The notes beneath the pieces are model-generated. The model was not told the DNA's origin. It saw only the letters and a list, made by a program, of their open reading frames with translations, and ran no database searches. 64,000 nt of DNA, from contig MHGA01000006.1 in the NCBI GenBank assembly GCA_001804415.1, positions 14,308 to 78,307 of the forward strand. Direction: 5' to 3'. The translations under genes and the position numbers were made by a program. This DNA is from Candidatus Aquivivens invisus. Lineage in GTDB: Bacteria > Omnitrophota > Gorgyraeia > Aquiviventales > Aquiviventaceae. Shown one piece after another: positions 18,549-61,512 of the stretch. Each line of letters starts with the position of its first letter. Within the stretch, counting starts at the first letter, position 1.

Positions 18549-18574
18549 CCGACCGCCTTCAGCGCCGCGCGCGG

Positions 18575-19736: not shown

Positions 19737-19766
19737 CTTCCCTCTTCCCCCTTCGCTCTTCCCCCT

Positions 19767-21604: not shown

Positions 21605-21606
21605 GG

Positions 21607-22077
21607 ATGGGACAGGAGATTCCGCTTTCCAACGGTGTGGGCGAGGTCATGGCGCCGCAGACGCTCGTGACGGCCTTCGTCATCGCGCCGGACGGCAGCA
21701 TTCGGTTGGATGCCGGCGCGCTGCATGGACGCAGCCAGATCGAGGGCCAGGTGACGATGGTCTCGCGGCAGGAGCTGGCGGGTGAGTCCCAGCCGGTGCT
21801 CGTCGTGTGGGTGGCCCTGGAGCTTGACGGGGCCAATCGGCCGGTGCGGTACAAAGGCTTGTCGGTGTGCCAGATCCTCGTGAACTCGAAGCAGCAGATG
21901 GGCTACAAGAGCCTCTCCGAGCACGTCAACCGCATGGGCGAAGCGATTCGAGGAGACATCAACATTGCGCGTCTCAGCCCCGAGCAGCGGCGCGCGGTCA
22001 AGCAACAACTCGTGGCCTTGGGCGCTTCGTTCTGGGACGCGTCCGACCCGGTGCTCAAGCAGGCCCTTGAGTCGTGA
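21607..22077 (+). CDS. Hypothetical protein (156 aa), translationally coupled to downstream BioB-like gene
   Basis: SD AAGGAG upstream; ATGA overlap at 22074. Confidence 0.45.
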   Translation: MGQEIPLSNGVGEVMAPQTLVTAFVIAPDGSIRLDAGALHGRSQIEGQVTMVSRQELAGESQPVLVVWVALELDGANRPVRYKGLSVCQILVNSKQQMGYKSLSEHVNRMGEAIRGDINIARLSPEQRRAVKQQLVALGASFWDASDPVLKQALES

Positions 22078-44167: not shown

Positions 44168-45487
44168 TCACCCCACTCGCCGGCGGGAGAGCGCGTAAAA
44201 GGGTAGCGCTAGGACGAGGAGGCCGAAGCCGAAGAGCGCCTCACGCGGCTGCTTCACGCAGACGTCGAGGATGAAGCCGCACATCACCAAGGAGAACAGC
44301 AGCGGGGTCAGCGGATACCCCCAGGCGCGGTAGGGCCTTGGGCGCGTGGGATGCGCGCGCCGCAGGACGATCACCCCCAGCACCGCCATCACGAAGAACA
44401 CGGAGATGACGACCGTGGAGTAGGTCATGATCTGGTCAAACGTCTTGGTGAACACTAGCACCACGGCGATCGCCGCGTTGGTCCACAAGGCCAGGGCCGG
44501 CGTGTGATACGTCGGGTGCACGGCGCTCAACCATTCGAAGAGGGGATGATCCTTGCCCATCGCATACAGGATGCGCGCGCCGGTGAGGATGTAGCCGTTG
44601 AGCGCGCCGAACGCCGAGCAGGCTACCATGACGGCGATGAACGTCGCCCCCGGATTTCCCCACAGGCGTTCCAGCACATGCGAGGCGACCAGCGTGGTGG
44701 TCGGCAAGTCGGTCATGTCCACGCAGACCAAGTAGCTGATGTTCACCAGCAGATACAAGACAGTCACCAGCGCCAGGCCTCCGAGAATCGAACGCGGCAG
44801 CGTGCGGGACGGATCGCGGATTTCTTCGGCGACGTAGGCGGCCTCCGTCCATCCGCCGAAGGTCCACAGCACAAACACAAACGCCACGCCGGACGACTGG
44901 ATGACGGGCAGGGTCAGGGCGGGGAGGCGCCAGTCAACGGCCACGCCGCGCCCGCCGGCCAACGCAATCACGCCGGTTGCGATCACGCTGACCAACGCCC
45001 CGATCTTCAGCACGGTAAAAATGTTTTGGACCGCTGTGCCCCGCCGCACCCCCAAGACGTTGATGGCGGTCAGCAGCACAATCGAGCCGGCGGCGAGGCC
45101 TCGCAGCGCAACCGGCGACATCGGGAACAACCGCCCGAGGTACTCCGCGAACACAAAACCCAGGATGGCGATGGTGCCGGTTCGCTCGATGAACAGTTTC
45201 GTCCAGCCGAAGAGAAAGCCCCAGAACCGGCCGTAGCCTTGCGTGATGTAGACGTAGTCGCCCCCGCTCTGTGGAAACAGCGTGGACAATTCGGCGTAGC
45301 ACAACGCACCGCACAATGACACGAGTCCCCCGACGACCCAGAGCGCGAGGATCAGCGAGGGACTTGGGAGGTGCGTGGCGATTGAGCTGGCCGTGCGGAA
45401 GATCCCGACGCCGACGATGCAGCCCACCACCAGCATCGTCGCATCGAAGAGCCCCAGCGCCCTAATGAGGGAAGACGGCTTGCTCAT
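44168..45487 (-). CDS. APC-family amino acid permease (start ATG 45487; the GTG 45505 alternative lies inside the repeat)
   Basis: 12-TM APC family profile. Confidence 0.75.
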   Translation of the reverse strand: MSKPSSLIRALGLFDATMLVVGCIVGVGIFRTASSIATHLPSPSLILALWVVGGLVSLCGALCYAELSTLFPQSGGDYVYITQGYGRFWGFLFGWTKLFIERTGTIAILGFVFAEYLGRLFPMSPVALRGLAAGSIVLLTAINVLGVRRGTAVQNIFTVLKIGALVSVIATGVIALAGGRGVAVDWRLPALTLPVIQSSGVAFVFVLWTFGGWTEAAYVAEEIRDPSRTLPRSILGGLALVTVLYLLVNISYLVCVDMTDLPTTTLVASHVLERLWGNPGATFIAVMVACSAFGALNGYILTGARILYAMGKDHPLFEWLSAVHPTYHTPALALWTNAAIAVVLVFTKTFDQIMTYSTVVISVFFVMAVLGVIVLRRAHPTRPRPYRAWGYPLTPLLFSLVMCGFILDVCVKQPREALFGFGLLVLALPFYALSRRRVG

Positions 45488-45492
45488 AGCGG

Positions 45493-45559
45493 CGACAAGC
45501 GACACGCGACAAGCGACAAGAAGAGAATCATGTCACTTGTCCCTTGTCACTTGTCACTC
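45493..45559. repeat. Inverted arrays of heptamers: (CGACAAG)x4, 10-nt spacer, (CTTGTCA/TGTCACT)x4; long hairpin between M15 peptidase stop and permease start
   Basis: Read directly; right arm supplies the last codons and stop of the peptidase. Confidence 0.9.
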
Positions 45560-46419
45560 TGTTCAAAGTGCCAATGCCACGGCTCGAACGCCGTGTTGTG
45601 CGGATTATCGCGGGGGTACGACAGCACGAATCCAAACTCGTGCGCATGGTGCGCAAGCCACTGGTATTCCGGGAGGGCTTCGAACGCCTCAGGGTTGTCC
45701 TCGCCATTGATGCCCTCCTCGTTGATGAAATCGACGGCTTGGCGGGGAGGGTAGCCGTGCTCGCTGTGTCCCGGCAAGGCGACGAAACGGTTGGTCTCGC
45801 GGATGGAATGGTCGTGCTTCGGCAGATAGAAGAGGAACAAATACAGCTGATAAGCCGGCGAGCGATAGCCGGACTCAACCAGGAGGCGCTTGCCGAGGTC
45901 GTGCGCCATGGCCTCCATCATGGCCTCGTAGGCCAGCATGGCTTCCCGAGGCAGAACCTGGGCGTCCAGCAAGATCGGTTGGCCTTCCTTGAGGTATTCC
46001 TGGGGACCCACCGGCACCACGTCGGGCGGTTCGCTCAACTCCCCGAAATAGTGGGAGGTTGCGCCGAGATCGGTTCCGCGCAAGGCGCGGACGGCATCGA
46101 GGAACGCGCGCTGCTCCTCGGTGAGGGGTTGGTACAGCTCCTCCCAGGTGAGCAGGTTGGCCGTGCCGGATTGCTTGTGGGAACTGATGAGCGGATCGAG
46201 GCGTTCAAGGACCGCCTGGAGCTGCGCGGTCTCTTCAGGATCCAGACGATCGACGTGGAGGGCGAGAGCCGACGCGGCAACACACAGCAGCCCGACCGTT
46301 GCCAGAACGCCGGCGAGGAACGGTCGGGCTGCGCGCGCGTGCACGGCGAGAATTACCGTCTCTTCGATGACAATTCGTCGACCACGCCGTTGAACCAGCG
46401 CCCCGCCTGATCCTTGCAT
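45547..46419 (-). CDS. D-alanyl-D-alanine carboxypeptidase, VanY/peptidase M15B family
   Basis: ESGYRSP and LPGHSEHGYPPRQAVD motifs; signal peptide. Confidence 0.75.
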   Translation of the reverse strand: MQGSGGALVQRRGRRIVIEETVILAVHARAARPFLAGVLATVGLLCVAASALALHVDRLDPEETAQLQAVLERLDPLISSHKQSGTANLLTWEELYQPLTEEQRAFLDAVRALRGTDLGATSHYFGELSEPPDVVPVGPQEYLKEGQPILLDAQVLPREAMLAYEAMMEAMAHDLGKRLLVESGYRSPAYQLYLFLFYLPKHDHSIRETNRFVALPGHSEHGYPPRQAVDFINEEGINGEDNPEAFEALPEYQWLAHHAHEFGFVLSYPRDNPHNTAFEPWHWHFEQSDK

Positions 46420-49672: not shown

Positions 49673-50293
49673 ATGCCGGATCTGTACAGCAATCTCCACC
49701 TGATCATCCGATGGCTGCATGTGATCGCGGGCATTACGTGGATCGGGCATCTCTATTTCTTCAATTTCGTGAATGTCCCCCTCCAAGGCTCGCTCGATGA
49801 CGCGGCGAAAAAGGCCGTCAACCCGCAGCTGATGCCCCGCGCCCTGTGGTGGTTCCGGTGGGGTGCGATGGTCACGTTCCTCGCGGGACTTTCGCTGTTC
49901 GTCCTGACCTACTTCTACACCCCAGGCGTCGGCTTCGGTGCGACCAGTCTCTTGATCGACACGATGGGCCTGACCCACCGGGCTATGTGGATTCTCTTCG
50001 GGATGCTCCTGGGAACCATCATGTGGTTCAACGTGTGGTTCATCATTTGGCCCACCCAGAAACGTCTCCTCACCGGCAAGGTCCCGGCTGACCAGATTCC
50101 CGCCGCGAGGAAGAAAGCCCTGCTGACCTCGCGGATCAATACGTATCTCTCCGGCCCTATGCTCTTCGGCATGCTCGCCCCGGCGCACTACGGCGCGATG
50201 AGCACGCCGGCACTCCTCATCGCCCTCGGCCTGGGGCTCCTGGCGATCTGGGCGAGCATTCGCTCCTCCTCGAACGTTGGCAAGCTCGCGTAA
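49673..50293 (+). CDS. Membrane protein of the HemJ / urate-hydroxylase-N-domain (DUF989)-like type
   Basis: LHVIAGITWIGHLYFFNFVNVP resembles HemJ/PuuD-N signature; 4-5 TM. Confidence 0.45.
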   Translation: MPDLYSNLHLIIRWLHVIAGITWIGHLYFFNFVNVPLQGSLDDAAKKAVNPQLMPRALWWFRWGAMVTFLAGLSLFVLTYFYTPGVGFGATSLLIDTMGLTHRAMWILFGMLLGTIMWFNVWFIIWPTQKRLLTGKVPADQIPAARKKALLTSRINTYLSGPMLFGMLAPAHYGAMSTPALLIALGLGLLAIWASIRSSSNVGKLA

Positions 50294-51923
50294 TCAGGCC
50301 ACAGTTCTCGCACGGCACGAGGCCCGCCTCGTGTCGTTTCTGTCGAATCCCGCTAGCTACACTCCTCCGGTCGATTGCGTCGAGCGACGGGAAACGCACG
50401 TCTCCCACGTGTTCCTCGCCGGGGCCTTCGCCTACAAGTTGAAGAAGCCGGTCACCTTTCCATTTCTCGACGCCTCCACCCTGGCGCTGCGACGGCGGTG
50501 GTGCGGTTTGGAGCTGACGCTCAACCGGCGGCTCGCTCCCCGCATCTATCTGGGCCTTGCGCCGGTGGTGGAGGGCACCGAGGGCCTGTGTCTCGGAGGG
50601 AAGGGTCGAGTGGTGGAGTGGCTGGTTGCGATGCGCCGACTGCCTGAGGCGCGGATGCTCGATCAGCTCGTGGCGAAAGACCGGGTCAGCCGGCGCGATA
50701 TGTTCCGGATCGCAGACATCCTGGCGCGGTTCTTCAGGACGTGTGCGCGCAGCGCACGCATCAACCGGTTTGGCGCTTCCCGGCTCGTTGCGGAGCTTGT
50801 GCTTGGCAACCTCCGGGAGTGCGCCCCATTTGTGGGGCGGCTGCTGTCGGAGAAGGACCTCCGGTTGCTGGAATCGGCGTATCGGCAGTTCCTCTCGCTC
50901 CATGAACCTCTGCTGCAACGGCGGGTGCGCGAGGGACGCATCATCGACGGCCACGGGGATCTGCGCTGCGAGAACATTTGCATGACTGAGCCGGTGACGA
51001 TCTTTGATTGCGTGGAGTTCCAGCCGGCGTTTCGCTGCGGCGACGCCATCAACGACCTGAGTTTCCTGGCGATGGATCTCGAGTTTCGCGGCAAGCCCAG
51101 ACTGGCCGAGGCGCTGGTGGCGCGCTATCGTCGGAACAGCCGCGATGTCACGTGCGAGCCGCTCCTGCCGTTCTACAAATGCCACCGCAGCCTGGTGCGG
51201 GGCAAGGTCAGGGGGCTTTCGTGGCTGCAGCATCCGCGCGCCGCGGAAGGTCGACGGGTACGGAAGCTTTCCCGACGGCACTTTGCGCTGGCCGTGCGGT
51301 ACGCCAGGCAATTTGCCCCCCCGCGGCTCATCGCAGTCGGCGGCCTGATCGGCACAGGGAAGAGCACCCTGGCCCGCGGGCTGGCCGAGCGGTTGGGGGC
51401 GGTGTGGCTGCGGACCGATGAGATCCGGCTGAAAGAATTTGCGAGATTTCGGCGGCTCGCCTCTGCGAAGCCAGGTGGCGAAGCAGGGGAGGATGCAAGG
51501 GGTTTCTCGGACGGGCTCTACGCCCCGCGCGTCTCAGCCCTGGTGTACGAACGGTTGATCGAGCGAGCCGAAGCCGTCATCCGCCAGGGCCGGTCGGTGG
51601 TCTGCGACGGGACGTTCTCAAGGGCCGAAGGGCGCCGGGCGCTGAGACGCATCGCGAAACGCGCCGGTGGTTCGTTCTATTTCTTTGAGTGCACAGCACC
51701 TCGGCAGGTGGCGAGGCAACGGGTGGGGAGGCGCCTGGCCAGGCAGAGCGACCTGTCAGAAGCCAGACCGGAGCACTACGACCGCCTGAAACACGGGTTT
51801 GAGCCGGTCCGAAGACCTGAGGCTGCTTGCTGGAGGCGGCTGCCCACCACGAGCTCACCGGAGCGCGTGGTGCAGGAGGCGCTGGAGACCCTGCGCCGCG
51901 CCTGGCGTATCGGGGCCTATTGA
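50277..51923 (+). CDS. Bifunctional aminoglycoside-phosphotransferase-like kinase / P-loop ATP-binding protein (start uncertain, TTG)
   Basis: APH catalytic loop HGDLRCENI plus DxxE; C-terminal Walker A GLIGTGKST. Confidence 0.65.
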   Translation: MASSRNQATVLARHEARLVSFLSNPASYTPPVDCVERRETHVSHVFLAGAFAYKLKKPVTFPFLDASTLALRRRWCGLELTLNRRLAPRIYLGLAPVVEGTEGLCLGGKGRVVEWLVAMRRLPEARMLDQLVAKDRVSRRDMFRIADILARFFRTCARSARINRFGASRLVAELVLGNLRECAPFVGRLLSEKDLRLLESAYRQFLSLHEPLLQRRVREGRIIDGHGDLRCENICMTEPVTIFDCVEFQPAFRCGDAINDLSFLAMDLEFRGKPRLAEALVARYRRNSRDVTCEPLLPFYKCHRSLVRGKVRGLSWLQHPRAAEGRRVRKLSRRHFALAVRYARQFAPPRLIAVGGLIGTGKSTLARGLAERLGAVWLRTDEIRLKEFARFRRLASAKPGGEAGEDARGFSDGLYAPRVSALVYERLIERAEAVIRQGRSVVCDGTFSRAEGRRALRRIAKRAGGSFYFFECTAPRQVARQRVGRRLARQSDLSEARPEHYDRLKHGFEPVRRPEAACWRRLPTTSSPERVVQEALETLRRAWRIGAY

Positions 51924-51968
51924 CAAATTATTTTTTATCAGCTAATATTTAGCATAAGCGAATTAAAC

Positions 51969-52403
51969 ATGACGATCAGCCGATCCCACGTCAGCGAAGC
52001 GGTGGCCCAGCTCATGCCCAACATCATCCGGGGCGTGCAGCTGGACTTTTTTGTCAAGCGCCGGGTCACCCAGACCCAGTTGCTCATGCTGCTGGCGATC
52101 CGAGGATACGGACATCCCTCAATGGGTCGTCTGGCCGATGGCCTCCACGTGAAGATGCCCACCGCCACCGGCATCGCGAGCCGCTTGGCCCGTGCGGGGT
52201 ACGTCCGGCGCGCCCCAGGAGAAACCGATCGCCGGCAAGTCCTGGTGCAGCTCACGCCGAGGGGCGAGCAGTTTATCCGCGATTTTCAATCCGTCATCCG
52301 CCGGCGCTGGGAGGACGTGCTGGGTTCGCTCAACGCCGGGGAGCTGGCGGCGTTCCACCGGGTGGTTACCAAACTCTCCGCATCGCTGCAAGGAACCCTC
52401 TAA
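51969..52403 (+). CDS. MarR-family transcriptional regulator
   Basis: wHTH MarR core, 144 aa. Confidence 0.8.
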   Translation: MTISRSHVSEAVAQLMPNIIRGVQLDFFVKRRVTQTQLLMLLAIRGYGHPSMGRLADGLHVKMPTATGIASRLARAGYVRRAPGETDRRQVLVQLTPRGEQFIRDFQSVIRRRWEDVLGSLNAGELAAFHRVVTKLSASLQGTL

Positions 52404-52407
52404 CCTC

Positions 52408-53658
52408 ATGCGCATCCTGTGTGGGATCGTCCTTCTGCTGTTCATGCCCTCGGGGATTTCCTCCGCCTCTGACGTCTTGACGCTCGAAGAGTGTTATGAG
52501 CTCGCGCTGGCGCGCAGCGAGGAGCTCCTGATCCACCAGGAGAAGATCCGGGAAGCCGAAGGGCGGTTCCTCGAGGCGCTCGGCACCGTGATGCCCACCG
52601 CGACGTTCGAATGGTCTCGCAAGCGGCAGGACGGCAACAACGCCTCGGCGTTCAGCCTCCAGGATATCCCAGAGCGAAAATTTGTCTTCACGCAGCCGAT
52701 CTTCTCCGGCTTCAAGGAGTTTGCGGCGTTGGCCGCCTCGCGCGCCCAGCGCCGCGAGCGCGCGTTCGAGCGCCGGCGGGCGGAGCACCTGTTGTTCCTC
52801 GACGTCGTGGACGCGTTCTCCCTGTTGAGGCAGCAGCGGGAAGATTTGGCGACGCTGGAGGCGATCCGCCTGGCGCTGGTGGAGCGACTCGATGAGCTGG
52901 CTGCGCGGCAGCGGCTGGGCCGCTCAAGGCCGAGCGATCGGGTCAGCGCCGAGGCGCGGCTTCGGCGCGACGAAGCTGAGATCGAACGCGTCCGGCGGCA
53001 GGAGGCGACGGCGCGTCACCTGCTTGAGTTCCTCACCGGTCTGCCGCAGATCAGCGGACTCGCGGACGATGCGGCGGGCGCGCCGATGCTCGACGACGAG
53101 GAGACGTGCGTCCAGCGCGCACACCTGCGTCCGGATGTGCAAGCGGAGGAGGAGGCCTGGCGGATCGTCAAGCACGAGGTGGTGGTGGCCCAATCCGGGC
53201 TGTGGCCCGACGTCGATGTGGAGGGCAACTACTACACCCGTCGGGTCGGGAACGCCTCGGGGGTTGATTGGGACGTCCTCTTGAAGGTGGAGGTGCCGAT
53301 CTTCAAGGGCAGCGAGGTGCTCGGGGATATCCAGACGGCCTCGGCGAAAGCCCGTCAGGCAAAATGGCGTTTCGAGCAGGTTCACCGGGAGGCGCAACGC
53401 GAGATTCGGGACGCCTACTCGGACGTGCAGTTGGCGATCGCCCGGCAACAGGCCTTGGATCGCGCGTGGAAAGCCGCCGAGGACAACTACCGGCTCCAAC
53501 TGGACGACTACCGTCTCAACATCGTCAATAACCTCGACGTCCTCCAGACGCTTCAGGAGCTTCAAGATGTGCGCCGCGACCTCATCGCGGCGACGTACGA
53601 CGTGCAACGGCTCTACCAACGCTTGCAAATCGCCACCGCTCATGATCCCACCACCTGA
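52408..53658 (+). CDS. Outer-membrane efflux protein (TolC-like OMF)
   Basis: Signal peptide plus two OEP repeats; 416 aa. Confidence 0.75.
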   Translation: MRILCGIVLLLFMPSGISSASDVLTLEECYELALARSEELLIHQEKIREAEGRFLEALGTVMPTATFEWSRKRQDGNNASAFSLQDIPERKFVFTQPIFSGFKEFAALAASRAQRRERAFERRRAEHLLFLDVVDAFSLLRQQREDLATLEAIRLALVERLDELAARQRLGRSRPSDRVSAEARLRRDEAEIERVRRQEATARHLLEFLTGLPQISGLADDAAGAPMLDDEETCVQRAHLRPDVQAEEEAWRIVKHEVVVAQSGLWPDVDVEGNYYTRRVGNASGVDWDVLLKVEVPIFKGSEVLGDIQTASAKARQAKWRFEQVHREAQREIRDAYSDVQLAIARQQALDRAWKAAEDNYRLQLDDYRLNIVNNLDVLQTLQELQDVRRDLIAATYDVQRLYQRLQIATAHDPTT

Positions 53659-53757
53659 GCATCAAGGCAGCTCCGGTGCGGCGATCCCGGGCTGCCTTGA
53701 TACGCGTGGGGGGCTTAACCGTTGGCCCCGCCTTCGGCGGGGCGCACAGGTGGGGGG

Positions 53758-56700
53758 ATGACCCTCTCTGATCTGTCGATCAAGAAACCGGTGTTCGCCT
53801 GGATGCTCATGGCCGGGCTGATCGTCTTCGGCACGATCAGTTTTAAGCGACTGGGCGTGAGCCAGATGCCGGATGTCGAGTTTCCGGTCGTGTCCGTCGA
53901 TCTGCGATGGGAGGGTGCCGCCCCGGAGGTGATGGAGACCGACGTCGTGGATGTCACGGAAGACGTCATCACGAGCATCCAAGGCATCCGGGATATCTCT
54001 TCCTCGATCCGCCAGGGACAAGCGACGATCACCATTGAATTCGATCTGGAGCGCGACATCGACGTCGCCGTGCAGGAGGTGCAGACCAAGCTCGCCCAGG
54101 CGCAGCTGCGCCTGCCACGCGAGCTGGATCCGCCGATCGTGACCAAGGTCAATCCGCAGGATCAACCCATCATGTGGCTGGGCGTTTCAGGCGACGTGCC
54201 GAAGCGCGAGCTGATGGAGTACGTGCAGGACCACCTGAAGGATCAGTTTCAGACGATCAGCGGCGTGGGTGAAATCTTCCTGGGCGGATTTCTCGAGCGC
54301 AACCTGCGCGTCTGGATCGATGCGGACAAGCTGGAGGTCGCTCAGTTGACCATCGAGGATGTCATCACGGCGATCCAACGGGAGCACGCGGAGCTGCCGG
54401 CCGGCCGCCTGGAGACCGGCGCGAAAGAGTTCAACGTGCGCGCCATGGGCGAGGCGAGCAGCGTGGAGGAGTTCGGCAGGATCCTCATCCCGAGCCGCGG
54501 GGGCCAGCCGATCTACACCCCGATTGCCTTGAAGGATGTGGCGGTCATCGAGGACGGGCTGGCGGACCAACGGCGCATCTCCCGCATCATGGGCGAGACG
54601 GCGGTGGGCTTAGGGATCCGCAAGCAGCGCGGGGCGAACGACGTGGAGGTCGCCCGGCGGGTGCGCCGGAAAATGGCGGAGGTGGCGCAACGACTGCCTC
54701 AGGGGATCCAGCTCGGCGTCAACTTTGACCGGACGCGCTTCATCGAGGACTCGATCAACGAGCTCACCTTCACGCTGATCCTCTCGGCCATCCTGACGTC
54801 CCTGGTCTGCTGGGCGTTCCTCGGGTCGTGGAGTGCGACGCTCAACATCCTCATGGCGATCCCGACCTCGATCGTCGGATCGTTCATCTGTTTGTATTTC
54901 CTCGGCTTCACCCTCAACACCTTCACGCTGCTCGCACTCTCCCTGGCGATCGGCGTGGTGGTGGATGACGCCATCATGGTACTGGAAAACATCGTGCGCC
55001 ACCGCGAGCAGGGCCTCGCGCGGATCGAGGCGGCCAGGCTGGGCGCCCGGCAGATCACCTCGGCGGCGCTGGCGGCCACGCTGTCGATCATCGCGATCTT
55101 CCTGCCGGTGGCGTTCATGGCCGGCCTCATCGGGAAATTTTTCTTCGAATTCGGCATGACCATCTCCATCGCGGTCGCACTCTCCCTCCTGGAAGCCTTG
55201 ACGCTGGCCCCGATGCGCTGCGCCCAGTTCCTTCGGATCGGCGAGCGGCGCACGCAATTCGGCAAAGCGGTGGAATCGGCGTTTCGGATCCTGGCGGTTC
55301 GCTATCACGCGGCGCTGATCTGGTCCCTGCGGAATCGGCGAATGGTGCTCCTGGCCTCCGCGGCGATCTTCGTCGTGTCGTTGGGGGTGCTGCCGTGGCT
55401 GCGGAAGGAGTTCGTGCCGCCGCAGGATCAAAGCATGTTTTTGGTCCGGCTGCAGACGCCGGTCGGCTCGTCGATCGAGTTCACGGATGAGCAATTCAAG
55501 CTGGCGGAGCAGTTCGCGATGAGCCGCCCGGAGATCAAGCGCTATTTCGGAGCCATCGGCGGCTTCGGCGGCGGGGAGGTGAACGCGGGCATCTTGTTCA
55601 TCACCCTCCATCCGCCGCGCCAGCGCCGGATCGTGCCGCCGGACAGACATCCCCTGTCGCAACGCGAGTTGATGGCGCTCTTCCGGAAGGAGCTCAACGC
55701 CATTCCCGATGTGAAGGCCTCGATTCAAGACCTGAGCCTCAGCGGGTTCTCCGCCCAGCGGGGATTTCCCATTGAGTTCAGCATCCGCGGACCGGACTGG
55801 GAGCAGCTCGGCGTCATCGCGCAGGAGATGGAACGGCGGATGAGCCGAAACCCCCTCATGGTGGACGTCGACAGCGACTACTTGACCGGCGTGCCGGAGG
55901 TGCGCGTGCGGCCCGACCGCCGGCAGGCGGCGGCGCGCGGTGTCAGCATGGCGACGATCGCGCGGACCATCAACGCGCTCATCGGGGGGGAGCGGGTGGC
56001 CAAGTACACCCGCGGAGGCCGGCGCTACGACGTGCGGGTGCGGTTGATGCCGACCCAGCGTCTGCAGGCCGATGACATCGAGCGGTTATGGGTCTGGAAC
56101 CGCCACGGCGAGCTGGTCCAACTGAAGGACATCGTGACGATCACCGAAAATCCGTCGCTGTTGACCATCACGCGCAAGAACCGCGAGCGGGCCATCAGCG
56201 TTTTCTCGAACATCGCCCCGGGCCGGTCGCAGGCGGAGGCATTGCGGGAGGTGCAGCGGATCGCCAAGGACGTCCTGCCGCAGGGCTATCACGCGGTCTT
56301 CGGCGGCAGCGCGCAGACGTTCCGCGAGTCGTTTCAAAGCCTCCTGTTTGTCCTGTGGCTCGGCGTCCTCGTGGCGTACATGGTGCTGGCGTCGCAGTAC
56401 AACAGCTACCTCCATCCCGTCCTGGTGCTCTTAGCACTTCCGTTCAGCGTCTCCGGCGCCCTGATGGCGCTCTGGGTGGGAGGGCAGTCGCTGAACATTT
56501 ACAGTTTCATCGGACTGATCTTGCTGATGGGGATCGTCAAGAAAAACTCCATCCTGTTGGTGGACTTCACCAACCAGCTTCGGGAACAAGGGCAGGGCGT
56601 CCATGAGGCGCTCCTGAACGCGTGCCCCATGCGGCTGCGTCCGATCCTCATGACGTCCATCTCGACGGTGGCGGCCGCTGTCCCTCCGGCCCTGGCCGTG

Positions 56701-56880
56701 GGGCCTGGGGCGGAGACGCGCATCCCGATGGCGGTCGCGGTCATCGGCGGGGTGCTGCTCTCAACCCTCCTGACCTTGTTTGTGGTGCCGTGCGCGTATA
56801 GCCTCATCCCTGAGAAAAACAAAGGCCCTTGGGGATTCCCAAGGGCCTTGTCGATTGCGCAGGAAGCAAAAGGCTATTGA
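53758..56880 (+). CDS. RND efflux transporter (AcrB/CzcA superfamily)
   Basis: 1040 aa, 12-TM RND topology with two large periplasmic loops. Confidence 0.85.
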   Translation: MTLSDLSIKKPVFAWMLMAGLIVFGTISFKRLGVSQMPDVEFPVVSVDLRWEGAAPEVMETDVVDVTEDVITSIQGIRDISSSIRQGQATITIEFDLERDIDVAVQEVQTKLAQAQLRLPRELDPPIVTKVNPQDQPIMWLGVSGDVPKRELMEYVQDHLKDQFQTISGVGEIFLGGFLERNLRVWIDADKLEVAQLTIEDVITAIQREHAELPAGRLETGAKEFNVRAMGEASSVEEFGRILIPSRGGQPIYTPIALKDVAVIEDGLADQRRISRIMGETAVGLGIRKQRGANDVEVARRVRRKMAEVAQRLPQGIQLGVNFDRTRFIEDSINELTFTLILSAILTSLVCWAFLGSWSATLNILMAIPTSIVGSFICLYFLGFTLNTFTLLALSLAIGVVVDDAIMVLENIVRHREQGLARIEAARLGARQITSAALAATLSIIAIFLPVAFMAGLIGKFFFEFGMTISIAVALSLLEALTLAPMRCAQFLRIGERRTQFGKAVESAFRILAVRYHAALIWSLRNRRMVLLASAAIFVVSLGVLPWLRKEFVPPQDQSMFLVRLQTPVGSSIEFTDEQFKLAEQFAMSRPEIKRYFGAIGGFGGGEVNAGILFITLHPPRQRRIVPPDRHPLSQRELMALFRKELNAIPDVKASIQDLSLSGFSAQRGFPIEFSIRGPDWEQLGVIAQEMERRMSRNPLMVDVDSDYLTGVPEVRVRPDRRQAAARGVSMATIARTINALIGGERVAKYTRGGRRYDVRVRLMPTQRLQADDIERLWVWNRHGELVQLKDIVTITENPSLLTITRKNRERAISVFSNIAPGRSQAEALREVQRIAKDVLPQGYHAVFGGSAQTFRESFQSLLFVLWLGVLVAYMVLASQYNSYLHPVLVLLALPFSVSGALMALWVGGQSLNIYSFIGLILLMGIVKKNSILLVDFTNQLREQGQGVHEALLNACPMRLRPILMTSISTVAAAVPPALAVGPGAETRIPMAVAVIGGVLLSTLLTLFVVPCAYSLIPEKNKGPWGFPRALSIAQEAKGY

Positions 56881-57212
56881 AGGAGCTGCGTCCCGCCTTC
56901 CGGAAGGGGGACGTCGATCTGCGGGATGGGGAAGGTTGCCACGTGCAACGCCCCGCCGACGGTCTGCCCGATGCCGTTGAAGAGCCCTTCGCCGATGCCG
57001 AGGAAGAAGTTCCCTCCACCCTGGATGGCTTCCGCCGGTTCGCTGAAGATCTCCGTCCAGCCCAGCAGCCCGTTCTTGAGGCCGTAGACGAACTTGCCCT
57101 TTACCTTGCCAAGATAGTCCACCTCTTGCGTCCACGGGCTTGCCGCAAACGCCGCAATGGGCGCTGCCACCAACGCGAGGACCACTGCGATTGCCCCTAA
57201 CCGTCTGGTCAT
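56874..57212 (-). CDS. Small secreted protein, paralog family member
   Basis: Signal peptide; GKFVYGLKNGLLGWTEIFSEPAEAIQG...VGGALHVATFPIP. Confidence 0.6.
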   Translation of the reverse strand: MTRRLGAIAVVLALVAAPIAAFAASPWTQEVDYLGKVKGKFVYGLKNGLLGWTEIFSEPAEAIQGGGNFFLGIGEGLFNGIGQTVGGALHVATFPIPQIDVPLPEGGTQLLQ

Positions 57213-57348: not shown

Positions 57349-58221
57349 ATGAAACGGGTGTTGGTCGTCTACAAGAAAAGCGCCTATCAGCTCCACGTGG
57401 TGGAGCGGAAGGATCCGTGGCTGAGGCGGCTGCTGCGAGCGAGTCACCCCGATGCCCTCGACTGGCTCGCGGCCCACCGCGTGCAACAACGCACCCTCGA
57501 TGCCGTGGTGCGCAGCCTGCGCAGCCTCGGCGTGCGGGAGACCCTGGTCTATCGCGAGCGCCTTCGGCCCGCCACCGGCTACGATCTGGTGCTGAGTGTG
57601 GGAGGCGACGGGACGGTGCTGCAGGCCTCCCACTTCATGAAGGACACGCCGCTCCTGGGCGTGAACTCAGATCCGACGCGCAGTGAGGCCGTGTTCTGCG
57701 CGGCCACCGCCTCGGACGTCCATCGAGTCGTGCGGGACGCGTTGGAGGGCCGGCTGCCCGCGCTCTTGCTCTACCGCTTGGCCGTTGCGCTCAACGGCCG
57801 GCGGCTGGGTCCGTTAGCGCTCAATGACGTGCTGATCGCCCATGAGGATCCCGCCACGATGAGCCGCTATCGCCTGCGGCTCGGCGCCCGGTGTGAAGAT
57901 CACAAGAGTTCAGGATTGTGGGTGGCCACCGCCGCGGGCTCCAGCAGCGCGATGGCCGCGGCGGGAGGAAGGCGCCTGCCCTGGGGGGCCAAGCGGTTTC
58001 AGTACCGGCCTCGCGAGCTGTACCAGGGGCGCTTGACCCGTTGTCGCCTGACAGGCGGGCAGCTTTCGCCCCCACGGTGTCTTGAGTTGGTCTGGTTGAT
58101 GCGGGAGGGTGCGGTCTTTCTCGACGGGCCGCATCTCAAACACCGACTGCGATTCGGGGATCGGGTGACGGTGTCGCTCTCGCCGCAACATCCATTCCGC
58201 GTGCTGGGCTTACGCCGATGA
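57349..58221 (+). CDS. nadK: NAD kinase
   Basis: GGDGT motif, NAD kinase fold. Confidence 0.8.
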   Translation: MKRVLVVYKKSAYQLHVVERKDPWLRRLLRASHPDALDWLAAHRVQQRTLDAVVRSLRSLGVRETLVYRERLRPATGYDLVLSVGGDGTVLQASHFMKDTPLLGVNSDPTRSEAVFCAATASDVHRVVRDALEGRLPALLLYRLAVALNGRRLGPLALNDVLIAHEDPATMSRYRLRLGARCEDHKSSGLWVATAAGSSSAMAAAGGRRLPWGAKRFQYRPRELYQGRLTRCRLTGGQLSPPRCLELVWLMREGAVFLDGPHLKHRLRFGDRVTVSLSPQHPFRVLGLRR

Positions 58222-58228
58222 GACAGAG

Positions 58229-58336
58229 CGACAAGCGACAAGCGACAGGTAACAAGTCGAACAGGCCTACTCGAGGGCAGCTTCCTCTGTTGTGGTGTTG
58301 CCTTGTCGCTTGTACCTTGTCGCTTGTCCCTGTCCT
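58229..58336. repeat. Inverted arrays of heptamers (CGACAAG)x3-5 ... 37-nt spacer ... (CTTGTCG/CTTGTMC)x5 between nadK and memo-ammecr1
   Basis: Read directly; ATG 58218 (overlapping nadK TGA) is in frame through the array with the downstream gene. Confidence 0.9.
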
Positions 58337-58367
58337 TGAGGTCACGGCGGAGCCGCGAAGCGCCCGC

Positions 58368-59735
58368 GTGGCCGGGGCGTTCTATCCCGATGACCCTGCC
58401 GTCTTGCGCGCGACGATTGAGCAGCTCCTCGCGGGCCACGACGGCGCACCGGCATCGCCCGACAAGCCCCGCATACTCATCAGCCCCCACGCCGGCTACC
58501 CCTATGCGGGGTCAGTGGCCTCCCGCGCCTTCCACGAGGTCCAGGGGCGTGCCTATGATGGAGTCGTCGTCGTGGGCTTCACACACCGCTTGAACTTCGA
58601 GGGTACCTCCGTCGAGACCCGCGACGCCTACCACACGCCGCTGGGTCCCATCCCCGTCGACACGGAGGCCGTGGAGTTCCTGCAGGCGCAACCCGGCATC
58701 ACGCACGTCGAGGAGGCGCATGAGGCCGACGAGCACTCGATGGAGGTGATGCTGCCGTTCTTGCAGGTTGCCTTAGGCGAGTTCCGGGTGGTCCCGATGC
58801 TGATGGGCCGCCATGATTTCTCAGACGCCCAGGAACTGGCCGCGGCCCTGGCGCAGTTGGCGCAGCACGGCGAGTATCTGTTCGTGTTCAGCACCGACCT
58901 CTCCCACTACCATCCGTACGACGAGGCGAAACGGCTCGATGACCAGACCGTCAACCTCATCCTGCGCGAAACCGCGGGGGCGGTTGATCGGCTCTTCTCC
59001 CAGGGCCACCTGGAGGCGTGCGGTCGGGGGCCGGTGGTCGCCGGGTTGCTGCTCGCCCAACGGTTCGGCTATCTGGAGCGTCGGTTGCTCCTCTACGCGA
59101 ATTCGGGCGATACGACGGGTGAGGCGAGTCGCGGGGTCGTGGGGTATGCCGCCATCGGGATGTATCCGCCGAAGACGTCCGCGTCGGTGGAGACGGTGTC
59201 CCGCGACGCGGGGATGGCGCTGGTGCGCGCGGCCCGGCAGGTCATCACCGCGAAACTTCAACCCACCCCCTCGACCGAGGCCGTTGCGCTGGACGTGTTT
59301 CCTGAGCTGCAGCAAGCGCGCGGCATGTTCGTGACGCTGCGCAAGCACGGGGAGTTGCGCGGCTGCATCGGCCGCATCGAGACAGACGAGCCGATGGCCT
59401 CGCTGCTGCCGACCGTCTCGGTCGAAGCGGCGCTGGCGGATACGCGCTTCCTGCCTGTGACTGCGGAGGAGCTGGACGACATCACCGTCGAAGTCTCCGT
59501 CCTGAGCCCGCCGGCACCGGTCAGCTTCCAAGACATCGTCGCCGGGCGTGACGGGGTGGTGCTGCGGAAGGACGGCCGCAGCGGGGTGTTCCTGCCGCAG
59601 GTCTGGACAGAGAGCGGCTGGACGAGGCTGGAATTCTTACGCGAGCTGGCCCACCAGAAGGCCGGGCTCCAGCCGGATGCCTGGCAATCCGCGCAGCTGT
59701 TCACCTTCCAGGATCAGGTGTTTGAAGAACACTGA
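58368..59735 (+). CDS. Fused MEMO1-like (AmmeMemoRadiSam protein B-type) and AMMECR1 (protein A-type) protein; GTG start 58368, alternative ATG 58218
   Basis: N-terminal VAGAFYP...ISPHAGYPYAGSVASRAF (MEMO), C-terminal FVTLRKHGELRGCIGRIE (AMMECR1). Confidence 0.7.
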   Translation: MAGAFYPDDPAVLRATIEQLLAGHDGAPASPDKPRILISPHAGYPYAGSVASRAFHEVQGRAYDGVVVVGFTHRLNFEGTSVETRDAYHTPLGPIPVDTEAVEFLQAQPGITHVEEAHEADEHSMEVMLPFLQVALGEFRVVPMLMGRHDFSDAQELAAALAQLAQHGEYLFVFSTDLSHYHPYDEAKRLDDQTVNLILRETAGAVDRLFSQGHLEACGRGPVVAGLLLAQRFGYLERRLLLYANSGDTTGEASRGVVGYAAIGMYPPKTSASVETVSRDAGMALVRAARQVITAKLQPTPSTEAVALDVFPELQQARGMFVTLRKHGELRGCIGRIETDEPMASLLPTVSVEAALADTRFLPVTAEELDDITVEVSVLSPPAPVSFQDIVAGRDGVVLRKDGRSGVFLPQVWTESGWTRLEFLRELAHQKAGLQPDAWQSAQLFTFQDQVFEEH

Positions 59736-61015
59736 TTCGTCTGGCAGGCGGTGTTGCGGTGGAAGAGGAAGCGGCGCGCCGCCACCCAATCGTAGGCTCG
59801 TACGCCGACCCAGCGTGCGCCGGGGAGGTACAGCAGCGGCACAAGCCACCACAGCAGCACGAGCCGGACGCTGATCCGGCGAAACGCGTCAAACCCCTCC
59901 GCGATCCTCCCGTACGGCTCCACCAGTTGCATGCGACTCTGGCAGCCCTCCCGAGTCAGCGACGGGTGGATGGCGCGTAGATCCGCGACCCCGTGAAAGT
60001 CAATCGGCTCCAGCCGACCGAACAGGTCAAGCGCGAACAGCCGCGCAACACTCGCCAGGCAAAATCCGCATCGTCCGTCGTAGAGCAGGCGGATCCGCCC
60101 GCGCTGCGCATGACGGGTTCTCCGCCGTTCAATCCACCGCACGAGGGTTTCCGGCTCGACGAACAGCAGCAGCTGCGGGGGAAAGAGGAAGAAGAAGATC
60201 GTCGGCACATGGAGGGTCACCAGCAGCAGCACGTGAAAGCTGACACCCCACAGCAGCGCGAAGGGGCGCGTGCGCCGGATGAAGAGCAGGAACGGCAGGG
60301 CGAATTCCCCCGTGATGACCACCAGCTCAATCCACTGGCACACCTCAGGCTGCCCCGCCAGCCATGCGCGGAAGGGGAACTGTCGCACCACACCCTGCGG
60401 CGGGTAGCGCAGAAGATAGTAGTATGGGTTGTCGGTGAGCCAGTTGCCTCCGGCGGTGATCTTGCTCAAGCCGGTGTAGAGAAAGGTCCAGGCGATCTGC
60501 AATTGCAACAGCCGCTGCACGAAAAACGGCCGGAGGCGTTTGTACGCATGGGCGCCGGCTCGGTCGCCGCGCAGGAAGCTGTCGACCGAGAGGAAGTCGC
60601 CGGGGTAGCTCGTGACGTACATCAGCGAGAGTGTGACCAGCAAAATGTCAAATGACAGCGTGCCGATGTGGAGGGAATTGAGCGCGTAAAAGTAGTAACA
60701 GGACACTCCCATGAGGAGGCAGCTTGCCTGGGTATTGAGGCCGATCAGCACGCAGGCCCAGGAGCCGCCGAAGAGCCCGACGAACGTCCACACCAGCCAG
60801 TCGGGACTTTGCTCGATGAGCTGCAGGGCCCAGAGCGGGAAGAACGAGCCGTTCTTCTCCTTGAAGGCGGTGGCGAGGTAATTGTCCTCCATCTGAAAGA
60901 ACCCGGGGAACAGATGAGCCCCGACCGTGATCGCCACCGCGATCCGGAACAACCCCAGGCTGAGCGACGGTCTCTCGACCAAGAACGCCTTGTGCCACCA
61001 CGCTCTCACGGACAT
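59714..61015 (-). CDS. HTTM-domain (vitamin-K-dependent gamma-carboxylase-like TM domain) protein fused to a DCC-family thiol-disulfide oxidoreductase (DUF393) domain
   Basis: N-terminal LGLFRIAVAITVGAH HTTM; C-terminal LLYDGRCGFC DCC motif. Confidence 0.65.
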   Translation of the reverse strand: MSVRAWWHKAFLVERPSLSLGLFRIAVAITVGAHLFPGFFQMEDNYLATAFKEKNGSFFPLWALQLIEQSPDWLVWTFVGLFGGSWACVLIGLNTQASCLLMGVSCYYFYALNSLHIGTLSFDILLVTLSLMYVTSYPGDFLSVDSFLRGDRAGAHAYKRLRPFFVQRLLQLQIAWTFLYTGLSKITAGGNWLTDNPYYYLLRYPPQGVVRQFPFRAWLAGQPEVCQWIELVVITGEFALPFLLFIRRTRPFALLWGVSFHVLLLVTLHVPTIFFFLFPPQLLLFVEPETLVRWIERRRTRHAQRGRIRLLYDGRCGFCLASVARLFALDLFGRLEPIDFHGVADLRAIHPSLTREGCQSRMQLVEPYGRIAEGFDAFRRISVRLVLLWWLVPLLYLPGARWVGVRAYDWVAARRFLFHRNTACQTNQCSSNT

Positions 61016-61449
61016 CGGTACATGACCTGCCGTTGAATCTCGTCCGGACGATTCGCAAGGTCCGGATGCGCCGCGTAGACCACCGTGAAACCGTCATACT
61101 GAGGAAACTTTCGCCGCAGGTATCGGCAGAATCGCGGCGCGTCGTGCAAAGAGAGCACGCTGATGAGGACGTTACGGTGAATGTTGTCGTACCAGACAAA
61201 GCGGGTTTCAAAAATCTCGTGGGGATCGATCAGAGACGGCTGGCCGTGCTTGAGGCCGTAGACCTCCGTGAACCCGTAGGAGCGGTCCACGTTGAAGAAC
61301 ATGATCCAGCCAGCCGGCGGGTACAGAAATTTCAGCTTCGGCAGCTCCCGCCCGATGAGGGGGCTGAGGTAGTTCAGGCGGAGGGTCTCGTAATGGAAGA
61401 CGGCGATCCAGAGGATCACGAATCCACTGATCCAGACATGGCGTCGCAT
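61006..61449 (-). CDS. Hypothetical membrane-anchored protein co-transcribed with HTTM-DCC gene
   Basis: ATG 61449; N-terminal TM; 10-nt overlap with downstream gene. Confidence 0.4.
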   Translation of the reverse strand: MRRHVWISGFVILWIAVFHYETLRLNYLSPLIGRELPKLKFLYPPAGWIMFFNVDRSYGFTEVYGLKHGQPSLIDPHEIFETRFVWYDNIHRNVLISVLSLHDAPRFCRYLRRKFPQYDGFTVVYAAHPDLANRPDEIQRQVMYRCP

Positions 61450-61471
61450 GCCACTACTATATCGCATCGCC

Positions 61472-61512
61472 GGAAAAAGAAAACGGCCCCGCGCTCGCAA
61501 GAGCGCAGGGCC
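61472..61512 (-). terminator. Intrinsic terminator of cspA (GGCCCUGCGCUC-UUGC-GAGCGCGGGGCC plus UUUUCUUUUUCC)
   Basis: Read on minus strand directly after cspA stop. Confidence 0.7.

Follow-up and report, generated by a model that had tools for sequence, protein, structure and literature searches.

A fused Memo–AMMECR1 gene with a predicted signal peptide and no linked radical-SAM gene in a clade of Omnitrophota

The window, by which we mean the whole stretch of DNA analysed (64,000 nucleotides), carries a complete gene that joins a Memo domain (protein B of the AmmeMemoRadiSam system) to an AMMECR1 domain (protein A). The features of the locus are collected in Table 1. The first-pass annotation had read the gene as a fusion in the order B to A, and the single open reading frame (ORF) does pass the curated cut-offs for both families. 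The Memo part matches PF01875 over residues 49–312 (E 8.6e-59, 199.4 bits against a cut-off of 27) and TIGR04336 over profile positions 1–268 of 270 (241.3 bits against a cut-off of 26). The C-terminal half, on which the annotation had made its reading depend, passes both AMMECR1 models: PF01871 over residues 336–502 and profile positions 1–168 of 168 (E 5.1e-46, 156.7 bits against a cut-off of 25) and TIGR04335 with 164 bits against a cut-off of 99. Structure prediction, proposed earlier as a check on the domain boundaries, gave an AlphaFold2 model (pLDDT 91.5, pTM 0.86) in which both domains fold confidently, with a linker near residues 317–328. In Foldseek searches, the modelled Memo domain matches human MEMO1 (7kq8, 7l5c, and 3bcz) with E-values of 1e-19 to 2.5e-20 and superposes on it with TM scores of 0.81–0.82 (rmsd 2.6–2.8 Å), by which the predicted model has the Memo (LigB-like) fold. 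The motifs PHAGY (H91), FTH (H123), and DLSHYH (D227/H230) align with PHAGY, SHH, and DFCHW of human MEMO1; H91, H123, D227/H230, and C268 are invariant among 45 homologues. The metal-site residues of MEMO1 we take to be H49, H81, D189/H192, and C244 (human numbering). The title of PDB entry 7m8h names C244 as a metal-binding site residue. The AMMECR1 domain matches PH0010 (1vaj) with a phmmer E-value of 1.6e-25, the LRGCIG motif being aligned, and its model superposes on 1vaj with a TM score of 0.79 (Foldseek). The motif spans residues 380–385, and L380, R381, G382, C383, and G385 are again invariant among 45 homologues. Together these data show both domains to be intact, with the MEMO1 and AMMECR1 folds and the family-invariant residues retained.

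Table 1. Genes and sequence features at the fusion locus; positions are those of the window
Feature	Position	Strand	Description
NADK2-like (ATP-NAD kinase superfamily) gene	57349..58221	+	290 aa; stop overlaps the ATG of the fusion gene (ATGA)
Predicted mRNA hairpin of the two arrays	58213..58349	+	Contains the ATGA stop/start overlap and all of the leader-coding part
Fused Memo–AMMECR1 (AmmeMemoRadiSam B–A) pre-protein gene, complete	58218..59735	+	505 aa; ORF list, Pfam and NCBIfam above curated cut-offs
Predicted Sec signal peptide	58218..58349	+	Residues 1–44; leader common to homologues; presumed cleavage
Heptamer array 1	58222..58247	+	GACAAGC x3.6 (Tandem Repeats Finder); part of the charged n-region of the leader
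Heptamer array 2	58301..58335	+	CCTTGTC/GCTTGTC x5; reverse complement of array 1; codes for the hydrophobic h-region
Memo / AmmeMemoRadiSam protein B domain	58356..59156	+	Residues 47–313; TIGR04336, PF01875, Foldseek
AMMECR1 / AmmeMemoRadiSam protein A domain	59217..59723	+	Residues 334–502; TIGR04335, PF01871, phmmer, Foldseek
HTTM + DCC1-like membrane protein gene	59714..61015	-	433 aa; PF05090, PF04134
Small conserved hypothetical gene	61006..61500	-	164 aa as longest ORF; directly upstream of the HTTM–DCC gene and overlapping it

The gene that adjoins the fusion upstream had been called nadK. Membership of the NAD-kinase superfamily stands: the N-domain of Pfam NAD_kinase scores 28 bits against 25.5, the GGDGT motif is present, and the closest solved relative is human mitochondrial NADK2 (4.8e-12). 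The specific name does not, as the other Pfam NAD-kinase domain is below threshold and the NCBIfam models score at most 41 bits against cut-offs of 211–570 (best match 40.7 bits against 326). By sequence, the gene is a member of the superfamily with a putative kinase specificity. On the other side of the fusion lies the HTTM–DCC gene; HTTM is vitamin-K-carboxylase-like and DCC is a thiol-oxidoreductase. ORF coordinates and strands make this gene convergent with the fusion gene, not divergent as previously described; the two 3′ ends overlap tail to tail by 22 nt. It is a separate transcription unit. The small ORF at 61006..61500 gave no Pfam or NCBIfam match.

The fusion had been regarded as unusual, but B–A fusions occur across many phyla and are already annotated; JGI labels proteins of this kind 'AmmeMemoRadiSam system protein B/protein A'. 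A search for relatives in species-representative genomes gave at least 600 pattern matches, and 598 of the 600 listed encode a relative. The best 80 of the 598 come from more than 10 phyla; a motif screen found a complete fused B–A ORF in 67, and in nearly all of the remaining ones the tblastn match spans both domains. The fused homologues among the matches listed are all distant, with 31–42% identity to the window protein. Nearer relatives are plentiful: the identical protein sequence is present on 24 or more contigs from several samples, hundreds of conserved homologues share 56–71% identity with it, and the alignment of 45 homologues (56–69% identity) has more than 100 invariant columns. 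As judged from these comparisons and the model, the ORF is a functional gene. A neighbour-joining analysis of 87 fused proteins places the window protein in an Omnitrophota clade that is monophyletic. The order NADK2-like → fusion ← HTTM–DCC ← small ORF is conserved in this clade, and the outer flanks differ between loci. The NADK2-like gene is immediately upstream at nearly all clade loci with enough upstream sequence, often with the ATGA overlap; HTTM–DCC is kept beside the fusion in most, and the small ORF, called with 137–147 residues elsewhere, co-occurs with it. Since all conserved neighbours are from a single lineage, shared ancestry could account for the gene order.

No radical-SAM gene of the TIGR04337 type lies beside the fusion, and here the ORF motif scan and tblastn bear out the first-pass annotation. 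The CxxxCxxC ORFs in the 64-kb window are just MqnE, MqnC, and BioB, 35–40 kb from the fusion, and four diverse TIGR04337 queries gave no tblastn match in the window at E ≤ 1e-3. A TIGR04337 homologue was found neither within −58 to +14 kb of the fusion (about 72 kb, the window and 10 kb beyond) nor at any of about 17 distinct clade loci (±10 kb in the relatives). The gene cluster by which AmmeMemoRadiSam is recognised, with TIGR04337 near A and B, is thus not present at the window locus. At the distant loci, tblastn detected a TIGR04337 homologue in 46 of 80. It lies within 4 kb of 42 of the 67 fused B–A loci, with none in the fetched stretch of the other 25, and the radical-SAM genes adjoining distant fusions are true members of the family (337–644 bits, the cut-off being 220). 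Since fused proteins usually are still linked to TIGR04337, fusion is not what explains the missing radical SAM; on the loci compared, the lack of a linked gene is a property of one Omnitrophota clade. Export is no argument against a partner either, because signal-peptide-bearing fusions in other lineages, including those at the Omnitrophota loci L010, L014, and L023, stand directly beside TIGR04337; the gene is adjacent to 24 of 38 leader-bearing fusions. TIGR04337 is abundant in Omnitrophota: when a profile built from three TIGR04337 proteins of Omnitrophota was searched against a 5.8-billion-protein database, the best 120 of 8000 matches were all close relatives in other Omnitrophota.

We lean slightly towards a clade that works without a dedicated radical-SAM partner. 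Eukaryotic MEMO1 and AMMECR1 function in this way, and we know of no TIGR04337 orthologue in eukaryotes, where both Memo and AMMECR1 are present. A dispersed AmmeMemoRadiSam system, with TIGR04337 encoded elsewhere in the genome, possibly beside a second, 'Omnitrophota-type' B–A fusion, is a serious possibility that falls a little short of an even chance. In the cytoplasm, the radical-SAM enzyme might then act on the substrate or, ahead of Sec export, on the pre-protein, a scenario we consider plausible to a like degree. In favour of dispersal, the radical-SAM gene at Bacteroidales-type loci is 2.3–2.8 kb from the fusion and not adjacent to it, and 25 distant fused loci have none in the fetched stretch; its frequency beside leader-bearing fusions and in Omnitrophota at large points in the same direction. 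Its absence from about 17 clade loci (±10 kb) and from the 72 kb around the fusion argues against dispersal and for the partner-free reading.

The 5′ end of the fusion gene is most likely ATG 58218. The start given earlier, GTG 58368, is 150 nt too late and thereby missed the signal peptide; we prefer the ATG because a signal peptide and the residues A↓EPR at its end are encoded upstream of 58368 and are conserved across homologues. The 4-nt overlap that this ATG makes with the kinase gene is also made at loci L089 and L090. Two further in-frame starts exist: from TTG 58290 a short leader would remain, and from TTG 58317, the start in the NCBI annotation (472 aa), there is no leader. The leader was compared with the features of Sec (signal peptidase I) substrates, namely positive charge in the n-region, 10–20 hydrophobic residues in the h-region, and small side chains at positions −3 and −1, by heuristic scoring. 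By this heuristic the window protein has a Sec-type leader. The n-region MRQSDKRQATGNKSNRPTRGQ contains five K/R residues, the h-region LPLLWCCLVACTLSLVPVL has a 12-residue Kyte–Doolittle mean of 2.42, and the c-region EVTA puts V at −3 and A at −1 relative to a predicted cut before EPR; the AlphaFold2 model has a helix at residues 21–36. A hydrophobic leader that ends just before the conserved EPRxAKVAG is present in 113 of 119 homologues. In 112 leaders, position −1 is Ala in 85, position −3 is Val or Ala in 63, and position +1 is Glu in 75. In all full-length members of the clade, the n-region is positively charged, the core is hydrophobic, and an AxA-type site precedes the conserved EPR. 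A Tat signal and a lipoprotein signal were rejected for the clade, with a Tat-like motif in merely 6 and a lipobox-like motif in 5 of the 112 leaders. We infer that the protein is exported by Sec and cut at VTA↓EPR by signal peptidase I. Of the fused bacterial proteins examined, more than half have predicted export signals, among them the whole Omnitrophota clade.

A cytoplasmic protein, started at GTG 58368 or TTG 58317 with the heptamer arrays as an untranslated intergenic element, would agree with the NCBI start and with the position of the other arrays of the window, yet it is improbable. Across the clade, protein-level conservation extends to the A↓EPR residues, whose codons lie upstream of 58368, the frame is open from the ATG through both arrays, and the overlap at ATG 58218 recurs at the two loci named above. 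Clade members that have no arrays carry canonical signal peptides in the corresponding position, and the array-free leaders of L088, L091, L097, L099, L103, and L105 are as signal-like as that of the window protein. These array-free orthologues and the conserved A↓EPR junction likewise led us to reject the leader as an artefact of translated intergenic repeats.

The heptamer arrays, placed upstream of the gene in the first-pass annotation, both sit inside its leader-coding part. They form an inverted pair with arms of 21–30 nt that are 80–90% complementary. The hairpin predicted from them has a minimum free energy of −67.9 kcal/mol (z = −4.1), and none of 200 shuffled sequences folds as well. 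Similar hairpins are predicted at array-bearing orthologous loci and none at array-free ones. Array units and copy numbers vary between orthologous loci, and many clade members have no arrays; all array-bearing loci have an open frame from an ATG through both arrays. The other heptamer arrays in the window occupy short intergenic stretches just 5′ of start codons. A literature search on heptamer repeats in Omnitrophota returned none, just analogous repeats in cyanobacteria and Beggiatoaceae, for which intergenic heptamer repeat arrays, with TAACTGA repeats, are described (PMC4679880).

The suggestion that array length controls expression finds no support, since the 210-nt array region is identical in eight same-species contigs that differ in sample and assembly of origin; no repeat-number polymorphism was found among these consensus sequences, in which minority variants are invisible. 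The same identity argues against a phase-variable contingency gene, in which slippage of the 7-nt units, not a multiple of three, would toggle the frame as CTCTT does in opa. The two arrays do lie within codons 2–40, and orthologous arrays differ in unit and copy number, which implies rapid turnover; with few and imperfect copies (3.6 and 5), and with arrays absent from many clade members, we consider phase variation very improbable. In Neisseria opa, the leader-peptide CTCTT repeats code for the hydrophobic core of the signal peptide. A reading of the gene as a canonical-system paralogue in decay, for which the sole point is the missing linked radical-SAM gene, is hardly credible in view of the full-length ORF, the HMM scores above cut-off for both families, the invariant catalytic motifs, and the high-confidence model, and is effectively refuted by the conservation of the hundreds of homologues.

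As a whole, the locus is probably best explained by a functional B–A fusion gene whose product is exported and which falls in a distinct Omnitrophota clade within a widespread fused family. In such a locus, the ATGA overlap would couple translation from ATG 58218 to that of the kinase gene. Initiation would take place at the base of the predicted two-array hairpin, which a terminating ribosome would therefore have to open. The pre-protein would pass through Sec before the cut by signal peptidase I, and the mature two-domain enzyme would reside outside the cytoplasm, perhaps as a redox or dioxygenase-like unit that depends on a metal (Fe or Cu) and has an envelope-located substrate. The fusion would deliver the A and B activities together. 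A more far-reaching proposal, which we hold to be unlikely in its entirety, is that the clade has a radical-SAM-independent extracytoplasmic Memo–AMMECR1 that forms an envelope redox module with two newly acquired partners, the translationally coupled NADK2-like kinase and the convergent HTTM–DCC protein, with a quinone, isoprenoid, or lipid of the membrane as substrate, and that the paired arrays build both the signal-peptide code and the coupling hairpins. If true, the module would indicate in which class the long-sought substrate of Memo and AMMECR1 is to be found. Paired complementary heptamer arrays that serve as signal-peptide code and as start-site hairpins enforcing translational coupling would be a separate novelty.

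Memo and AMMECR1 are found from archaea to humans. MEMO1 has links to cell motility and to metal redox; AMMECR1 lies in the region of the AMME contiguous-deletion syndrome. To our knowledge, neither family has an established biochemical function, nor any member a substrate or chemistry. The natural fusion confirms that Memo and AMMECR1 act as a unit, which is already implicit in existing annotations. More useful are the export signals on many fusions and a clade that has no linked radical SAM yet is strongly conserved. If both export and radical-SAM loss hold, the search for the substrate is narrowed to the cell envelope, and the clade becomes a simpler, radical-SAM-free bacterial model. What is new here is the Omnitrophota clade itself, with a signal peptide predicted throughout, a NADK2-like gene upstream, and no linked TIGR04337. 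For now, the locus represents an annotated member of a known family, from an organism that is uncultured.

Short tandem units of 5–7 nt near gene starts are common to the window arrays, those of cyanobacteria and Beggiatoaceae, and Neisseria opa. The window arrays differ from all of these in that they are complementary pairs that form a hairpin, with no length polymorphism seen, and in that the heptamer unit of the Omnitrophota arrays changes between related species.

The locus is a modest variation on the known AmmeMemoRadiSam system, not a new kind of system. Memo–AMMECR1–radical-SAM contexts were reportedly treated by Burroughs et al. in 2019; our literature searches on 'AmmeMemoRadiSam' returned passing mentions at most. 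The canonical system has three genes (TIGR04335 for A, TIGR04336 for B, and TIGR04337), and solved structures of A are PH0010 (1vaj), MM0484 (1zq7), and ST0229 (1wsc). The window protein passes the A and B cut-offs and has the AMMECR1 fold and LRGCIG, but its A and B form one polypeptide, it has a predicted export signal, and no radical SAM is encoded in the locus. Two-gene systems, with a fused B–A protein and TIGR04337, are found, for instance, at L014, L010, and L023 in Omnitrophota, L040 in Burkholderiales, and L027 in Ignavibacteriota. The window protein shares with them the B-to-A order, a length of about 460–530 residues, and the HMM families, and many of their fusions also have an N-terminal signal peptide or lipobox. 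They differ from it in sequence (31–42% identity), in having TIGR04337 adjacent or within 4 kb, and in having no NADK2-like or HTTM–DCC neighbours. In anaerobic sulfatase maturation, a cytoplasmic radical-SAM enzyme acts on Sec-exported sulfatases before export. By analogy, this could explain the exported B–A fusions that stand beside TIGR04337 elsewhere, although the sulfatase system and Memo/AMMECR1 are unrelated families; we know of no modification of Memo or AMMECR1. Eukaryotic MEMO1 and AMMECR1 are separate proteins, cytosolic or nuclear and about 25% identical to the window protein, which is fused and predicted to be exported. With MEMO1 (3bcz, iron-bound 7kq8, and copper-bound 7l5c), the window protein has in common the fold and the conserved positions of the metal-site motifs.

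The two halves of the fusion protein match the Pfam families Memo (aa 49–312, E 8.6e-59) and AMMECR1 (aa 336–502, E 5.1e-46), both far over the gathering cut-offs, and the NCBIfam models for AmmeMemoRadiSam protein B (TIGR04336, 241 bits; cut-off 26) and protein A (TIGR04335, 164 bits; cut-off 99). The first-pass annotation, which placed B and A in that order on one polypeptide, is borne out, as is the identity of the AMMECR1 half. The AlphaFold2 model, computed with an input alignment of 45 homologues, is confident (pLDDT 91.5, pTM 0.86); it resolves an N-terminal helix (aa 21–36), the Memo domain and the AMMECR1 domain, with a brief drop in confidence at around aa 320–330 between the two domains. 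By Foldseek, the first domain resembles human MEMO1 (TM 0.81–0.82), and the second resembles PH0010, MM0484 and ST0229 (TM 0.79 at best); a sequence search of solved structures is consistent with these assignments. In the Memo half, PHAGY, (S/T)H and D-x-x-H line up with the corresponding motifs of human MEMO1; together with C268 and the LRGCIG motif of AMMECR1, they are invariant among the homologues. As both sets of HMMs, the model, the fold matches and the invariant motifs agree, the gene is real and intact; the full two-domain ORF speaks against a decayed copy.

The start codon required correction. The TGA stop of the upstream kinase gene overlaps ATG 58218, NCBI places the start at TTG 58317 (472 aa), and the first-pass annotation had chosen GTG 58368; residues of a predicted signal peptide are encoded between 58218 and 58368. 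The leader reads MRQSDKRQATGNKSNRPTRGQ-LPLLWCCLVACTLSLVPVL-EVTA, followed by EPRSARVAG; it requires ATG 58218 as start codon, for which TTG 58290 is a poorer substitute. A strongly hydrophobic leader ending directly before a conserved EPRxAKVAGxFYP is present in 113 of 119 clade members; the other six, including the shorter NCBI call of the window gene, have an N-terminus too short for a leader. Alanine is found at −1 in 85 of 112 leaders, valine or alanine at −3 in 63 and glutamate at +1 in 75, while Tat-like and lipobox-like motifs are rare. Given the hydrophobic stretch, these residues and the scarcity of the other motifs, the predicted leader carries the signature of a Sec/signal peptidase I substrate.

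Features of the window and array positions at orthologous kinase/fusion junctions
Feature	Position	Strand	Remarks
Fusion ORF	58218..59735	+	505 aa, Memo then AMMECR1
NADK2-like kinase gene	57349..58221	+	remote NAD-kinase relative, upstream of fusion
HTTM (vitamin-K-carboxylase-like) + DCC1-like thiol-oxidoreductase fusion gene	59714..61015	-	domain matches
MqnE	18524-19702		TIGR03700, 472 bits
MqnC	20519-21604		TIGR03699, 468 bits
Biotin synthase BioB	22074-23048		
Array 1, GACAAGC x3.6	58222-58247		part of leader's charged n-region
Array 2, CCTTGTC/GCTTGTC x5	58301-58335		complement of array 1; leader's hydrophobic core
Heptamer array sites in window	6719-6751, 10406-10463, 19702-19767, 45492-45558, 58222-58335		
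Arrays at junctions in other clade species	L087 9956-10089; L089 9986-10125; L096 1476-1554; L093 9968-10009; L094 5200-5268; L106 1799-1832		

Heptamer arrays thought at first to lie upstream of the fusion are located within codons 2–40, counted from ATG 58218. Arrays 1 and 2 are predicted to fold into a hairpin (58213–58349; −67.9 kcal/mol, z −4.1), with a stability that none of 200 shuffles reached. The base of this hairpin takes in the ATGA overlap. The window has eight tandem arrays of 3.6–8.3 copies (units GGCTGAA, GGGACAA, AAGTCAG, CTTCCCC, GCGACAA, TGTCACT, GACAAGC and CCTTGTC), each of them at the beginning of a gene or in a short intergenic spacer immediately 5′ of a start codon. Complementary pairs that fold into hairpins occur at two sites, 58222–58335 and 45492–45558 (hairpin 45470–45580, −39.7 kcal/mol, z −3.5); the 45492 unit, GCGACAA, is the same as the 58222 unit. 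The ORF between MqnE and MqnC begins just past an array pair. Our literature search found no report of heptamer arrays in Omnitrophota. The same junction holds arrays in other clade species too, with different units and often as complementary pairs (TAGTCCA/CTATGGT in locus L087; the exact reverse complements GACGCAA/GTCTTGC in L096). In these loci the signal peptide owes its hydrophobic core to the second array (WTIVYGLLVYGLWTMVYGL in L087, for instance), and the hairpins are similarly strong (z −3.3 to −5.05). Array-free members have ordinary signal peptides and no significant mRNA structure. Since the units differ among species and array-free members keep their signal peptides, the arrays are a fast-evolving feature of these genomes that is dispensable for the enzyme. 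That complementarity is kept despite the change in sequence points either to selection on the hairpin or to a mechanism generating repeats as inverted pairs. Array length had been proposed to tune expression; this is not supported, as the 210-nt array region is identical in eight same-species contigs from different samples, which are consensus assemblies that would hide rare variants. The most plausible local effect is that translation of the fusion would depend on ribosomes coming from the kinase gene.

The kinase gene is located immediately upstream of the fusion in nearly every clade locus with enough sequence, and the 4-nt overlap recurs often; genes further out vary. Its earlier label, nadK, is right as to kinship and too precise as to family: only the Pfam NAD-kinase N-domain passes (28 bits), all NCBIfam scores fall below cut-off (at most 41 bits versus 211–570), and the best solved relative is human mitochondrial NADK2 (4.8e-12; bacterial NadK 1e-5). 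The GGDGT motif is kept. The HTTM-DCC gene, previously described as divergent, in fact converges on the fusion, and the two share 22 nt at their 3′ ends. It is overlapped upstream by a small ORF without family match, as a conserved pair (59714–61500, minus strand), which lies convergent downstream of the fusion in most clade loci (L088–L093, L098–L105), with overlapping HTTM-DCC and fusion 3′ ends in some. In one contig carrying the window gene itself (L005, GCA_003508135.1), an extra stretch of about 100 nt splits the HTTM-DCC gene in two. Further upstream is an efflux operon of MarR, an outer-membrane factor (OEP) and an RND transporter (ACR_tran, 1040–1052 aa) at 50277–56880, also seen in L001 (3752–8663), followed on the opposite strand by a gene for a secreted-looking hypothetical protein of 112 aa without family match (56874–57212). 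A futalosine-pathway menaquinone cluster occupies 18524–23048.

The fusion itself is not unusual; the architecture is widespread and previously annotated. At E<=1e-10 the protein database holds 3407 relatives, with both Pfam domains in all 120 of those listed, and several already bear the JGI name ‘AmmeMemoRadiSam system protein B/AmmeMemoRadiSam system protein A’. Scanning species representatives, one genome each, gave at least 600 pattern matches, and the best 80 loci (31–42% identity) come from Omnitrophota, Acidobacteriota, Nitrospirota, Bacteroidota, Ignavibacteriota, Burkholderiales, Desulfobacterota, Zixibacteria, Verrucomicrobiota and others. The tblastn alignment covers both domains in nearly all 80, and screening for motifs gave an entire fused ORF for 67 of them. 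In 46 of the 80, the fetched stretch also contains a homologue of the radical-SAM partner; all seven neighbours checked are true TIGR04337 (337–644 bits; cut-off 220). For the 67 ORFs the radical-SAM gene is within 300 nt in 30, at 0.4–4 kb in 12 and out of view in 25. The fused form thus normally belongs to a two-gene system, and as a linked TIGR04337 gene is usual there, fusion does not explain an absent partner.

In a neighbour-joining tree of 87 fused proteins, the close relatives of the window protein (56–71% identity) group together as one clade, and every match bearing a source name is from Omnitrophota. Three marks distinguish it: the signal peptide, the conserved upstream kinase gene and the lack of a linked radical-SAM gene. 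By tblastn with four diverse TIGR04337 queries, no partner was found across the window (58 kb on the upstream and 4 kb on the downstream side of the fusion), across a further 10 kb visible in L001–L006 or at any of the roughly 17 distinct loci of the clade. The three CxxxCxxC proteins of the window are MqnE, MqnC and BioB, and the first-pass observation that no partner gene adjoins the fusion stands. In a profile search for TIGR04337 proteins of the Omnitrophota type, matches from other lineages saturated the results. Loss of the partner from the clade has roughly an even chance, and its relocation elsewhere is a serious possibility at somewhat under even. The chance is modest that the clade is a module of the envelope with new partners and truly independent of radical SAM. 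Export signals alone do not imply independence from a cytoplasmic radical-SAM enzyme, because 24 of the 38 leader- or lipobox-bearing proteins among the 67 distant fusions, from many phyla, keep TIGR04337 adjacent or within 4 kb. Other Omnitrophota with a leader (L010, L014, L023) have the radical-SAM gene directly upstream. Among the distant loci, Bacteroidota leaders end in a Cys lipobox, and the Burkholderiales and Rhodocyclales proteins have no leader. The family as a whole may pair exported Memo-AMMECR1 proteins with a presumably cytoplasmic radical-SAM enzyme, judging from predicted leaders; our literature search found no description of such pairing. A cytoplasmic radical-SAM step ahead of export is conceivable. 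Anaerobic sulfatase maturases provide a precedent for such an order.

The two-domain Memo-AMMECR1 protein encoded here is thus intact and conserved and has the features of a leader; its gene lies behind a conserved kinase gene, with no linked TIGR04337. Its translation would be coupled to that of the kinase gene, the pre-protein would be exported by Sec and cleaved between VTA and EPR, and the mature protein would act outside the cytoplasm. There it would probably be a metal-dependent unit, as the metal-site positions of MEMO1 are conserved and solved MEMO1 structures (PDB titles among the Foldseek matches) have iron and copper bound. A membrane lipid or quinone is an attractive guess for the substrate, prompted by the HTTM-DCC neighbour and the predicted extracytoplasmic location. 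Memo contexts were reportedly linked to nucleotide-base and aliphatic isoprenoid modification in a 2019 comparative study by Burroughs and colleagues.

The fusion belongs to the TIGR04336 and TIGR04335 families and to the widespread fused B-A architecture. Ordinary in itself, it gains interest from how widespread the export signals are and from its clade-specific context, both of them leads toward the function of the Memo-AMMECR1 pair. The eukaryotic MEMO1 and AMMECR1, which are not known to have such a radical-SAM partner, may be a functional parallel. The usual description of AmmeMemoRadiSam as three linked genes does not fit the window locus; the closest likeness is to the two-gene fused systems of other bacteria, from which it differs by the missing radical-SAM gene and the added lineage-specific neighbours.
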